Of a stretch of 64,000 nt of DNA, positions 1 through 6,000 are shown in pieces. Made by a program: the position numbers. The stretch lies in NCBI RefSeq assembly GCF_003991155.1, contig NZ_CP031293.1. One strand, written 5' to 3'. The DNA is from Escherichia coli (GTDB taxonomy: Bacteria; Pseudomonadota; Gammaproteobacteria; Enterobacterales; Enterobacteriaceae). Position 1 is the first letter of the stretch. Every line of letters begins with the position of its first letter.

Positions 1-3000
1 ACGTGCGCCAGCGGGTTTTGCACCATTGAGATATTTCCCGGTCAGTGTGCCGAAACCCAGGCACGAATAGGCCAGCAGTTCGACCCCTTCATACTGGCTG
101 ACTTCTGCCAGACCTACTTCAAAACTGCGGTTTAACAGGCTGTAGGGGTTCTGAATGGTGACAATACGCGGCAGATCGTGTTTGTCCGCCAGATGCAGGT
201 AGCGCATTACGCCAAATGCAGTTTCGTTCGACACGCCGATATAACGAATTTTTCCCGCGCGTTGGTACTCTGCCAGTGCGTCCAGTGTATCCAGCAGCGA
301 AACCGCAGGCGCAGAATCTGTCCAGCTATAACCGAGTTTGCCGAAGCAGTTGGTTGGGCGCTGCGGCCAGTGCACCTGATAGAGATCGAGGTAATCAGTC
401 TGCAGACGCTTGAGGCTGTCATGCAGCGCTTCGCGGATATTCTTCCGATCCAGCGCCTGATCCGGGCGGATGCCTTTGTCATTATTGCGCGACGGTCCAC
501 TCACTTTGGAGGCGATAATTAACTTTTCGCGGCTGCCATGTTTCGCCAGCCAGTTGCCGACGTAGGTTTCGGTTAACCCTTGCGTTTCGGGGCGCGGAGG
601 TACTGGGTACATTTCGGCAACGTCGATAAGGTTAATGCCCTGAGCGACGGCATAGTCGAGTTGTGCGTGGGCGTCGGCTTCGCTGTTCTGTTCACCAAAC
701 GTCATCGTGCCAAGCCCCAGCGTGCTGACTTCCAGCAAACTGTGGGGTATACGGTGATATTGCATAGCCGTTTCCTTTTTATAATCACGACATAAGGAAT
801 ATAAAAATGGCAGAGGGAAGGGAAAAGGGAAAGAGAAAAATCTTAAGGCCAGCCGGATGCTGACCTTATTTGTTAACGTTCAATAATTTGCGAAACATCA
901 TCACGGTTAATTTGCATCGCGTTACCTTGCTGATCGTGATAACTCACCAGCCCGGTATCATCATCAATTTCAGGTTTTCCATCGGTCAAAATCATACGGC
1001 CATCTTTGGTCGCCATGACGTAATCACTGGAACACCCGGATACAGCAAACGCCAGTCCGACTGCAGAAATTATTACTGCCCATTTTTTCATCCGGTTATC
1101 CTCATTTGGCCCACCTATGATAATAGTCTTTTTATAAACCGACGTTATATATCTTGAAAGCAGGAAAATCTTAAACTGTGAGGGTAACAGGAGTGAGTAC
1201 GCTCTCCTGCAGGAGAGCGTACGGATATCAAAGTGGATTTTTTTTGTTGCGAATCAGGTTGAGGCTTTCAACCGCAATAGAGAAGAACATCGCAAAGTAG
1301 ATGTAACCTTTCGGTACGTGGATGTCGAAACTTTCCAGAATCAGGGTAAAGCCCACCAGAATCAGGAAAGAGAGCGCCAGCATTTTTACCGAAGGATGGC
1401 GTTCGACAAAATCACCAATCGAGCGCGCGGCGAACATCATCACGCCTACGGCAATCACCACGGCGGCCATCATAATAAACAGGTGATCTGACAGACCCAC
1501 AGCGGTAATCACCGAGTCGAGGCTGAAGATAATATCCAGCAGCATAATCTGCACGATAGCGCCGAGGAATGATGAAACGCGTGTTTTCAGCCCTTCTTCT
1601 TCACCTTCAATGGATTCGTGGATTTCCTTGCTGGCTTTCCAGATAAGGAACAAGCCACCCAGAAGCAGAATCAAATCACGGGCGGAAATTTCCTGGCTGA
1701 ATATTGTAAAAAGCGGATTTGTCAGGCGCGTAACCCAGGCGATGGATGCCAGCAGCGCCAGACGCATAACCATGGCTCCCGCCAACCCCAGACGGCGCGC
1801 ATGAGCACGTTGTGCTGTGGGGAGCTTTGCCACCACCAGAGAAAGGAAAATAATATTGTCGATCCCAAGAACGATCTCCAGCAGCGTCAGCGTACCGAGC
1901 GCAAGCCAGGCGTTAGGATCGGTTATCCATGCAAATAACATCTAAAAAGCCCTGCCAAAAAAATGAAGCGGTAATTATATGCCCGGAAAGCGGCAGGTCA
2001 AAGCGATGGCTACTGGATCAGAAAATGACGGGCCAGTAGCGCACTGGTGAAATTCTTCTTCAAATAAAAGCCGCGCGGCAGCGTCAGAATCCGTTCGCCC
2101 CGGGCACCAATGGCTTCGGTAAGCGCTTTCGCATTCGCTGCTTTCGGTCGTATCTGTAAATATTCCCCGTGACGAGCGGTAATCCGCTCAACCTGACCGA
2201 GAACAATCATATCCATTAATTCTTCCCAGTCTTCGCGTAGCTGCCGGTCTTCCTCTTCATTCGGGCTCCACAGCAACGGTGATCCAACGCGACGCTTTGC
2301 CAGCGGGATGCTGCGCTCGCCTTCAACCGGTATCCACAGTACGCGTTTGAGCTTGTGGCGCACGTGGCTGGTTTCCCAGGTCACCCCGCTATTACCCGTT
2401 AACGGGGCAACACAAACGAATGTTGTTTCCAGCGGACGACCAAGACTATCCACAGGGATAGTTTTAAGTTCCACGCCCAGAGCAGCAAAATCTTGCTCAG
2501 GTTTACTCCCTGCGCTGGCACCTAGCCAGATCTCCAGTAACACGCCAATCCAGCCCTTATCGCGTTTTAAATTCTCTGGTGTAACCAGCCCGGCAAGTGC
2601 CGCCAGTTCTCCCAATGTATAACCAGAAAGTTGCTGTGCTTGCGCTAACAACTGTTCTTCAGTTTCGGGAGGAGAGAGCAGTGGGCGAGGTTGGGACATG
2701 TCACGATACCTTGGTTAAAAAATAAACAGCAATTATGTGCCGAATATTCGCAGTGTAACTTTTTCCACAGGCGTTGTTCAATTCTCTGATTTATATTACT
2801 TTTTAGGTTGCCGGTAATCGAGTTGCGCAACACTGCAATGGGTTTTCCAAATCTGGTCACTGAAAATAAACAGGATCTTACACCATGTTATCCACAGAAA
2901 GCTGGGATAACTGTGAAAAACCTCCACTACTGTTTCCATTTACAGCCTTGACGTGCGACGAAACTCCAGTTTTTAGTGGTTCAGTGCTTAACTTAGTGGC

Positions 3001-6000
3001 ACATTCTGTGGATAAATACGGCATTGGTTGATCTTTCGCCAATCCGTAAATGAGAGGTGTGACCTGGGTCACGAATTACTCTTTTTTATTACTAAAATTA
3101 CATGTAATGCATTGACTGATAATGAATATTTTAAAATGTCTATATCGGGCTTATTCAGAATGCTCCGGGTTTTCCCGTAGTAATTCCGTAGTTCTTCACA
3201 ACTCTATCCACAGAAAAGGTGAATAAAAACGGCTATCCACCCCTTCCTCTGTTTATAACTCTGCACATAACTGTGAGTTATTCAATTGTTATTAGTGTGT
3301 AATGCCCTGCAGAGAGTGGTTTACCGTCTTCCTGGAGTATGAAACAATCATTCGTATATAAAGCTTTATTTTGAGGTAGTCCGGTGATTGATGACGATGG
3401 CTACCGCCCAAACGTAGGTATCGTGATTTGTAATCGCCAGGGGCAGGTAATGTGGGCCCGGCGATTTGGTCAGCACTCCTGGCAATTTCCGCAAGGCGGA
3501 ATCAACCCCGGAGAATCCGCAGAGCAGGCGATGTACCGTGAATTGTTTGAAGAAGTAGGATTAAGCCGTAAAGACGTTCGAATCCTTGCTTCAACGCGTA
3601 ACTGGTTGCGCTACAAATTACCGAAACGTTTGGTGCGTTGGGACACGAAGCCGGTTTGTATCGGCCAAAAACAAAAATGGTTTCTCTTGCAGCTGGTGAG
3701 CGGCGATGCAGAAATCAATATGCAAACCAGCAGTACACCAGAGTTTGACGGCTGGCGATGGGTAAGTTACTGGTATCCGGTCAGACAGGTGGTGTCATTT
3801 AAACGTGATGTCTACCGTAGGGTAATGAAAGAGTTCGCGAGTGTGGTGATGTCACTGCAGGAAAATACGCCAAAACCACAAAACGCATCTGCTTATCGAC
3901 GTAAAAGAGGTTAAGTCACGCCAATTATGCTCACTCGCCTGCGCGAAATAGTCGAAAAGGTAGCCAGCGCACCACGCCTGAATGAGGCGTTAAATATTCT
4001 GGTTACCGACATCTGTCTTGCGATGGATACCGAGGTCTGTTCGGTTTACCTTGCCGATCATGATCGACGTTGTTACTACCTGATGGCGACCCGGGGGCTG
4101 AAAAAACCACGCGGTCGCACTGTAACGCTCGCGTTTGATGAAGGGATCGTCGGCCTGGTTGGCAGGCTGGCGGAACCGATAAACCTTGCAGATGCGCAAA
4201 AGCACCCCAGCTTCAAATACATCCCCTCCGTAAAAGAAGAACGTTTCCGCGCGTTTTTAGGCGTACCAATTATTCAACGTCGCCAGTTGCTTGGTGTACT
4301 GGTGGTACAGCAACGAGAGTTGCGCCAGTATGACGAAAGTGAAGAATCCTTCCTGGTGACGCTTGCCACCCAGATGGCAGCGATTCTTTCTCAGTCGCAG
4401 TTGACTGCCTTATTTGGGCAATATCGCCAGACGCGAATCCGTGCATTACCGGCAGCGCCTGGTGTGGCGATTGCCGAAGGCTGGCAGGATGCCACGTTAC
4501 CTTTAATGGAACAGGTGTATCAGGCATCAACGCTGGATCCGGCTCTGGAACGCGAACGACTGACCGGGGCGCTGGAAGAAGCGGCAAACGAGTTTCGCCG
4601 CTACAGCAAACGCTTTGCCGCCGGTGCACAAAAAGAAACGGCGGCTATTTTCGATCTTTACTCGCACCTGCTTTCGGACACCCGGCTGCGTCGCGAATTG
4701 TTTGCCGAGGTTGATAAAGGCTCGGTGGCAGAGTGGGCGGTAAAAACCGTCATTGAAAAATTTGCCGAACAGTTTGCCGCGCTAAGCGATAACTATCTCA
4801 AAGAGCGGGCTGGCGATTTACGTGCGCTGGGTCAGCGATTGCTGTTTCATCTTGATGACGCTAATCAAGGGCCGAACGCCTGGCCGGAACGTTTCATTCT
4901 GGTGGCAGATGAACTGTCAGCGACAACGCTTGCTGAGCTGCCCCAGGATCGCTTAGTGGGTGTTGTCGTGCGCGATGGCGCAGCCAACTCCCATGCTGCG
5001 ATCATGGTACGTGCGCTGGGGATCCCTACCGTAATGGGCGCGGATATTCAGCCTTCGGTGCTGCATCGTCGGACGTTGATCGTCGATGGTTATCGCGGTG
5101 AATTGCTGGTCGATCCGGAGCCGGTACTGCTGCAAGAATATCAGCGGCTAATTAGTGAAGAGATTGAGCTTAGCCGTCTGGCGGAAGATGACGTCAATTT
5201 ACCCGCCCAGTTAAAAAGCGGCGAGCGCATTAAAGTCATGCTCAATGCCGGTTTAAGCCCGGAACATGAAGAAAAACTGGGCAGCCGTATTGATGGCATA
5301 GGACTTTATCGCACTGAAATCCCATTCATGCTGCAAAGTGGTTTTCCGTCGGAAGAAGAACAGGTGGCGCAGTATCAGGGGATGCTGCAAATGTTCAATG
5401 ATAAACCCGTCACCTTGCGTACGCTGGATGTCGGAGCAGATAAGCAGCTGCCTTACATGCCGATCAGCGAAGAGAATCCATGCCTGGGTTGGCGTGGGAT
5501 TCGCATTACGCTCGATCAGCCGGAGATCTTCTTGATCCAGGTGCGGGCGATGCTGCGTGCTAATGCCGCTACGGGCAACCTGAATATTCTGTTGCCGATG
5601 GTCACAAGCCTCGATGAAGTTGACGAAGCACGCCGCCTGATTGAACGTGCCGGACGTGAAGTCGAGGAGATGATCGGTTACGAAATTCCCAAACCACGTA
5701 TCGGCATCATGCTGGAAGTGCCGTCAATGGTATTTATGCTGCCGCATCTGGCAAAGCGGGTCGATTTCATCTCTGTTGGCACCAACGATCTGACGCAATA
5801 CATCCTGGCCGTTGATCGCAACAATACCCGGGTGGCGAACATTTATGACAGTCTTCATCCTGCAATGTTACGAGCTCTGGCGATGATCGCCCGGGAAGCG
5901 GAAATACATGGAATCGATCTCCGTTTGTGCGGTGAAATGGCGGGCGATCCCATGTGCGTGGCAATCCTCATTGGGCTTGGGTATCGCCATCTGTCTATGA

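Follow-up and report, generated by a model that had tools for sequence, protein, structure and literature searches.

The DnaA-box cluster between mutH and rppH in an Escherichia coli chromosome corresponds to the DnaA-reactivating sequence DARS2

The divergent genes mutH and rppH of Escherichia coli, studied here in a 64-kb stretch of contig NZ_CP031293.1 (the window, that is, all 64,000 nucleotides analysed), are separated by a long spacer in which DnaA boxes are clustered. Comparison with published sequences and reagents indicates that this mutH-rppH region is almost certainly DARS2, the second DnaA-reactivating sequence of the E. coli chromosome. The two flanking genes are supported by open reading frame (ORF) calls and by the annotation of the E. 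coli genome NZ_CP029747.1, and rppH is followed in the window by ptsP. The locus is laid out as follows:

2010-2699, minus strand: mutH, 229 amino acids, left flank of the spacer
2700-3383: divergent mutH-rppH spacer, 684 bp, 38.7% G+C
3384-3914, plus strand: rppH, 176 amino acids, GTG start, right flank of the spacer

The length of 684 bp agrees with that given in the first-pass annotation, which had been made from the sequence of the window without database searches. NZ_CP029747.1 contains a spacer identical to that of the window, with mutH, the small ORF ygdT and rppH annotated alike. A sequence search found the spacer in 5424 of the 5426 complete E. coli genomes. The same search gave 5430 matching places, one of which is on a plasmid-labelled record, and some genomes have two copies. 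The spacer of K-12 MG1655 is of equal length and is identical at 676 of the 684 bases, with no insertions or deletions. All eight single-nucleotide polymorphisms (SNPs; 2704, 2714, 2723, 2770, 2798, 2839, 3043 and 3087) fall outside DnaA boxes I-VI, the IHF sites IBS1-2 and the Fis sites FBS1 and FBS2-5.

The first-pass annotation had counted at least five DnaA-box-like 9-mers, in both orientations. Nine sites with no more than one mismatch to TTATNCACA were found in the spacer (starting at 2761, 2888, 2912, 3007, 3151, 3192, 3204, 3218 and 3250), six on the plus and three on the minus strand. Two of these, at 2888-2896 (plus strand) and 3007-3015 (minus strand), are perfect, out of four perfect matches in the window. 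When the AT-rich spacer itself was shuffled with dinucleotides preserved, the mean number of sites with up to one mismatch was 1.06 (standard deviation 1.00, maximum 5) and none of 1000 shuffles reached nine; the mean number of perfect matches was 0.05, and 0.05% of 2000 shuffles reached two. The count is thus far above the expectation for AT-rich DNA. The spacer is also the densest DnaA-box stretch of the window, the mean elsewhere being 0.62 per 684 bp, with no other stretch coming close.

A repeated 10-mer, ATAACTGTGA, had been placed at about 2905 and 3268. It is present in exactly two copies in the window, at 2907-2916 and 3267-3276. The repeat is not significant, because some repeated 10-mer is present in 23% of the shuffled spacers, and only the GGGATAAC part of the first copy and the GTGAGTTAT part of the second are conserved. 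It was therefore rejected as a functional repeat, being within chance and only partly conserved, and has no demonstrable meaning. A 12-mer, TATCCACAGAAA, is common to boxes VI and II, and a repeat of that length is found in 1.7% of the shuffles; its first 11 bases recur in inverted orientation over a third DnaA box.

The published location of DARS2 is the mutH promoter region (PMC5835720; PMC11317965). Reagents from Kasho et al. 2014 (PMC4245941), Miyoshi et al. 2021 (PMC8682772) and Frimodt-Moller et al. 2015 (PMC4585315) were mapped onto the window, the site anatomy being based on the 2014 and 2021 supplements. Those that define DARS2, the core deletion, the minimal form, IBS1-2, FBS1, FBS2-5, FBS6 and boxes IV-VI each map with 0 or 1 mismatch, and the published DARS2 reagents do not map elsewhere than to the mutH-rppH spacer. 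The outer primer pair spans exactly 455 bp, the published length of DARS2, which in MG1655 occupies about 2,969,112-2,969,566 of NC_000913.3. Positions of the low-affinity boxes V-a, V-b and V-c were derived here from the bases altered in published mutant oligonucleotides. The parts of DARS2 in the window are:

2795-3249: full DARS2 fragment, 455 bp, from the Kasho 2014 primers
3017-3249: minimal DARS2 (DeltaRight construct), from primers MutH-11 and MutH-4
3192-3226: DARS2 core, the 35 bp missing in the published DeltaCore, flanked by primers MutH-14/15 and MutH-9/10
3218-3226, minus strand: DnaA box I (TTATTCACC), head-to-head with box II across a 5-bp gap
3204-3212, plus strand: DnaA box II (CTATCCACA), part of the 'double DnaA box' gTTCTTCACAactCTATCCACAg from chromatin immunoprecipitation sequencing (ChIP-seq)
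3192-3200, plus strand: DnaA box III (TTCTTCACA), head-to-tail with box II across a 3-bp gap
3151-3159, plus strand: DnaA box IV (TTATTCAGA), non-essential, in the gap between primers Ksh-30 and Ksh-31
3105-3133: IBS1-2, two IHF consensus 13-mers 3 bp apart, TAATGCATTGACT (plus strand) and TAAAATATTCATT (minus strand)
3067-3081: FBS1, non-essential, a perfect match to the Fis consensus (GGTCACGAATTACTC), within the FIS-1 oligonucleotide (3059-3089)
3017-3037: critical 21-mer with the essential Fis sites FBS2-3, the difference between MutH-11 and MutH-17, identical to MG1655
2999-3040, minus strand: FBS2-5 cluster with box V, the Miyoshi 2021 42-mer, 0 mismatches
3007-3015, minus strand: DnaA box V (TTATCCACA), seed of the ATP-DnaA oligomers that displace Fis
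about 2996-3004, 3017-3025 and 3028-3036: low-affinity boxes V-a, V-b and V-c, respectively
2888-2896, plus strand: DnaA box VI (TTATCCACA), paired with the low-affinity CTTACACCA (2877-2885)
about 2825-2839, minus strand: FBS6, non-essential Fis site, within the FIS-4 oligonucleotide (2817-2847, 1 mismatch)

The core reads TTCTTCACA-act-CTATCCACA-gaaaa-GGTGAATAA, and its boxes are arranged as in the published core rule, with boxes I and II head-to-head and box III head-to-tail with box II (PMC11724364). At IBS1-2, the 29-nt block of the published traIL/traIR primers is found at 3105-3133 with 0 mismatches; in a consensus scan each 13-mer has one mismatch to the IHF consensus TAANNNNTTGATW, and a PciI site (ACATGT, 3100-3105) adjoins the pair, matching the description in PMC11724364. 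Box V and the bases around it match the published FBS2-5 fragment exactly. Both ChIP-seq 'double box' sequences occur verbatim in the window, gTTCTTCACAactCTATCCACAg at 3192-3213 and tCTTACACCAtgTTATCCACAg at 2877-2897. Since the locus, the match to MG1655, the published reagents and these verbatim double boxes all agree, the region is best regarded as DARS2 itself. The first-pass annotation had called it a DARS2-like element depending on IHF and Fis: the DARS2 reading was right and is borne out by IBS1-2 and FBS2-5, which are identical to the published sites, while the suffix was too weak. No evidence contradicting this identity was found in the analysis. DARS2 is a known element that has been dissected since 2009, and its identification here therefore adds no new biology.

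In K-12, ADP-DnaA occupies the three core boxes, where a head-to-head contact between the molecules of boxes I and II is steadied by the one on box III, bound head-to-tail (PMC11724364). IHF, bound at IBS1-2 roughly halfway from the core to the Fis sites, bends the DNA, aided by negative supercoiling, and the bend puts Fis bound to FBS2-3 in contact with the core DnaA dimer. ADP is released, and the apo-DnaA departs and binds ATP, so that ATP-DnaA rises before initiation at oriC. At high levels, ATP-DnaA forms oligomers that extend from box V across V-a, V-b and V-c and displace Fis, which switches the element off. Because the presence of Fis is confined to growing cells and the binding of IHF to the time before initiation, DARS2 reads both growth phase and cell cycle. 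Release of ADP from ADP-DnaA in vitro with IHF and Fis has been shown for the K-12 sequence, and occupancy of DARS2 by DnaA, IHF and Fis in vivo is known from chromatin immunoprecipitation in K-12, with three DnaA ChIP-seq peaks at the element (PMC11317965). Activity in K-12 suffers when IBS1-2 or FBS2-3 is moved by 5 or 10 bp, and the chromosomal position of DARS2 affects fitness.

A species-level genome collection was scanned with a pattern over boxes II and I (TATCCACAGNNNNGGTGNATAA), which gave at least 120 loci. Among the matches listed, mutH and/or rppH are beside the match at 24 loci, from Escherichia, Citrobacter, Enterobacter, Lelliottia, Kosakonia, Pantoea, Erwinia, Tatumella, Rosenbergiella, Arsenophonus and Moritella; the sample thus covers species whose core resembles the pattern, and those with a different DARS2 core (Serratia, Yersinia, Vibrio) lie outside it. 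At 14 of the listed syntenic loci both start codons were in reach, and their spacers are 679-684 bp long. These were aligned with that of the window, giving 15 genomes from six genera and two families.

Overall identity of the aligned spacers to that of the window goes down to 52-56% in the Erwiniaceae, and the DNA between the boxes diverges, the less conserved stretches matching the window at about 40-60%. Boxes V and VI, by contrast, are invariant in the 15 genomes, as are 8 of the 9 columns of box III, which is absent from the search pattern. In the core, 29 of the 35 columns are invariant, boxes I and II being part of the pattern. Box IV (0.59), FBS1 (0.43) and FBS6 are conserved poorly or not at all, which fits their reported dispensability. 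The spacing is fixed: box VI is exactly 119 bp from box V, and box V exactly 199 bp from the core, in all 15 aligned sequences, in agreement with the published impairment by 5- or 10-bp shifts of IBS1-2 or FBS2-3. Among the listed syntenic loci with enough sequence, the offsets of boxes V and VI from the core are kept in 20 of 22, and in one of them box VI is shifted by 1 bp. In some genera the aligned positions again hold a 13-mer resembling an IHF site and a 15-mer resembling a Fis site, both less clear in the Erwiniaceae.

Some caveats attach to the evidence for the assignment to DARS2. The conservation of boxes I and II is by construction, as the search pattern covers both, and the IHF consensus is weakly recognisable in the Erwiniaceae. 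Four of the eight SNPs relative to MG1655 (2798, 2839, 3043 and 3087) fall within the 455-bp element. Three of them, 2798, 3043 and 3087, are in DNA between the sites. At 2839 the window has T and MG1655 has C, which changes the first consensus G of FBS6 to A, although this site is reported to be non-essential (see PMC8682772 for the FBS6 sequence). The same base change is also among those in the engineered subFBS6 mutant. We infer that the element would be active in this strain.

The most conserved part of the spacer is overlapped by an annotated ORF:

2867-2953: most conserved spacer stretch, with blocks AACAGGATCTTAC..GTTATCCACAGAAA, GGGATAAC and CTGTTTC.ATTTACAGCCTTGAC
2885-3031, plus strand: ygdT, annotated ORF of 48 amino acids, overlapping box VI and box V and extending through FBS3; annotated in NZ_CP029747.1 and MG1655

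Kasho et al. reported that the right half of DARS2, with boxes IV-VI, is dispensable on plasmids, and the 2867-2953 stretch falls within that half. The box VI module, CTTACACCA-tg-TTATCCACA-GAAAG-CTGGGATAA, has a layout like that of the core, TTCTTCACA-act-CTATCCACA-GAAAA-GGTGAATAA. Within the CTGGGATAA block GGGATAAC (2904-2911) is invariant, and so is the block TTTACAGCCTTGAC (2939-2952), 35 bp further along. The DARS2 literature searched gives no role for box VI, GGGATAAC or TTTACAGCCTTGAC. It is possible, if somewhat doubtful, that the right half, though dispensable on plasmids, is a working part of chromosomal DARS2. It could be a second head-to-head DnaA assembly site; alternatively, it could be a timing module, governing for example the release of IHF, the mechanism of which is described as unknown. 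The strong conservation of this 'dispensable' half, seen in the alignment, is a side observation that may be new and is a lead and not a result.

Further invariant blocks were observed just beyond the 455-bp element on the rppH side, at 3249-3262 (CTGTTTATAACTC) and 3272-3284 (TGTGAGTTATYC). The former holds a box-like TTATAAACA on the minus strand and a -10-like TATAAC; the two blocks may be parts of the rppH promoter or further weak DnaA sites. The presumed rppH leader (3315-3351 and 3370-3383) contains the invariant AGTGGTTTACCG and GGAGTRTGAAACAATC as well as TTGAGGTAGTCC, the Shine-Dalgarno region that precedes the GTG start.

Other explanations for the cluster were weighed against DARS2. 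That the DnaA boxes are mainly operators for transcription of mutH and/or rppH, with nucleotide exchange secondary, is unlikely. The element does lie between divergent genes and has been described as in 'the mutH promoter' (PMC5835720), and DnaA is known as a transcription factor at other promoters (PMC11317965). The sole sigma-70-like mutH promoter found by a scan, predicted to be weak (GTTACA-16-CATAAT, minus strand, 2732-2759), has its -35 abutted by the box-like TTTTCCACA (2761-2769), and 23 bp past box I toward rppH there is an invariant CTGTTTATAAC that is a possible -10; by eye, no convincing sigma-70 promoter was seen in the invariant TTTACAGCCTTGAC and CTGTTTATAAC. The box at 2761, however, is poorly to moderately conserved (0.65), and the head-to-head arrangement of boxes I and II, common to DARS1, is specific to ADP release (PMC11724364). 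Moreover, published deletions or substitutions in the core, IBS1-2 and FBS2-3 alter the ATP-DnaA level and initiation, also from plasmids away from the genes, and a transposon-borne DARS2 about 650 bp from the deleted locus (in the ptsP-rppH gap or inside rppH) restores the cell-cycle phenotype. Because DARS2 works from plasmids and from the transposon copy, operator function is not the main role, but the two roles are not mutually exclusive, and the boxes may regulate mutH or rppH as well. A passive sink, titrating DnaA without any catalytic action in the way first ascribed to datA, is much less probable still. It would account for the first isolation of the locus, as a DnaA-binding fragment of high affinity (Roth and Messer 1998, cited in PMC5835720), and for DnaA ChIP-seq signals that are among the strongest of the genome (PMC11317965). 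Extra copies, however, stimulate initiation and deletion lowers ATP-DnaA (PMC5835720), and since these copy-number and deletion phenotypes run opposite to titration, a sink is contradicted; titration does not need spacing conserved to the single base, and for K-12 the published ADP-release assays refute it.

The conservation and the length of the spacer might also be due to a small protein encoded by ygdT, which is annotated by RefSeq in the genome with the identical spacer and in MG1655. Outside Escherichia, however, CTG, CAG, AGG or GAG stands in place of the ATG, or a stop comes after 11-39 codons; in Enterobacter, Erwinia, Pantoea and Tatumella either the start codon is missing or the frame is shortened, yet the DNA blocks beneath it are invariant. 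Conservation of the spacer takes the form of solid runs of 9-30 bases and three-base periodicity is absent. A literature search by the name ygdT gave nothing relevant among the 10 titles listed, mostly an unrelated polymerase motif. As the frame is lost and the DNA blocks are kept, ygdT was rejected as the cause of the conservation, for which it is a very remote candidate, and it is probably not a real gene but a misannotation within a protein-binding stretch of DNA. Chance matches in AT-rich intergenic DNA are a negligible explanation: the spacer has a low G+C content and its repeated 10-mer is indeed within chance, but no composition-matched shuffle reaches its count of boxes and the boxes are invariant across six genera. 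A search for structured RNA gave no Rfam family above threshold in the spacer.

DARS2 can be set beside the other DnaA-regulating sites of E. coli. DARS1, located upstream of uvrB, has like DARS2 a three-box core with 9-3-9-5-9 spacing and an inverted box I, and both release ADP from DnaA (PMC11724364). The K-12 DARS1 core, TAATACACA-tgg-TTATCCACA-ggaat-AGTGGATAA, is unlike that of the window in sequence. DARS1 is about 101 bp long and does not need IHF or Fis, whereas DARS2 adds IBS1-2, the Fis-site cluster and boxes IV-VI and is the stronger of the two in vivo. The element described here is flanked by mutH and rppH and not by uvrB, and so is not DARS1; in the scan the DARS1-type cores have a box I of GGTGGATAA and are beside uvrB. 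Among the matches listed, 28 such cores (TAATNCACA-nnn-TTATCCACA-GGAAT/GAAAT-GGTGGATAA) have a uvrB match in the fetched locus, and they come from many Gammaproteobacteria, including Yersinia, Pectobacterium, Edwardsiella, Morganella, Vibrio and Idiomarina. Many Pseudomonas and Stutzerimonas genomes among the matches listed have instead a full three-box core, CTGTTCACA-agg-TTATCCACA-nnnnn-GGTGGATAA-CC, and the sequence fetched around it matches none of mutH, rppH and uvrB; these cores could be DARS-like elements.

Like DARS2, datA is a non-coding DnaA-box cluster in which an IHF bend joins DnaA molecules and IHF binding is timed by the cell cycle (PMC11724364). Unlike DARS2, datA promotes hydrolysis of ATP on DnaA, acts via ATP-DnaA oligomers independently of Fis, and has IHF bound after initiation. 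It is located by glyV-X-Y and queG and has a single IHF site, whereas the element in the window has a head-to-head core and Fis sites instead. Like DARS2, the origin oriC combines DnaA boxes of high and low affinity with sites for IHF and Fis, and box V with V-a, V-b and V-c forms head-to-tail ATP-DnaA oligomers as at oriC. It is without the head-to-head box pair of DARS2. In turn, DARS2 is without the duplex-unwinding 13-mers and has two GATC sites, counted by eye, in the 684-bp spacer; the oriC-type 13-mer GATCTNTTNTTTT has no match with up to two mismatches in 2700-3383. An origin-like element was accordingly rejected, the unwinding motif being absent from the spacer.

Elsewhere in the window, the Rfam search identified CsrB (54247-54606, plus strand), GcvB (35863-36068, minus strand) and three tandem tRNA genes with identical scores (31246-31539, minus strand).

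Correct recognition of DARS2 keeps the mutH-rppH spacer from being counted as unexplained DNA and ygdT from being counted as a gene. The spacing of box VI, box V and the core and the conservation of the right half bear on the DNA-loop model, in which IHF brings Fis to DnaA, and the latter points to a part of DARS2 without an assigned function. DARS2 is, with DARS1 and datA, one of three non-coding chromosomal sites that set the ATP/ADP state of DnaA, and it therefore helps to time replication of the E. coli chromosome.

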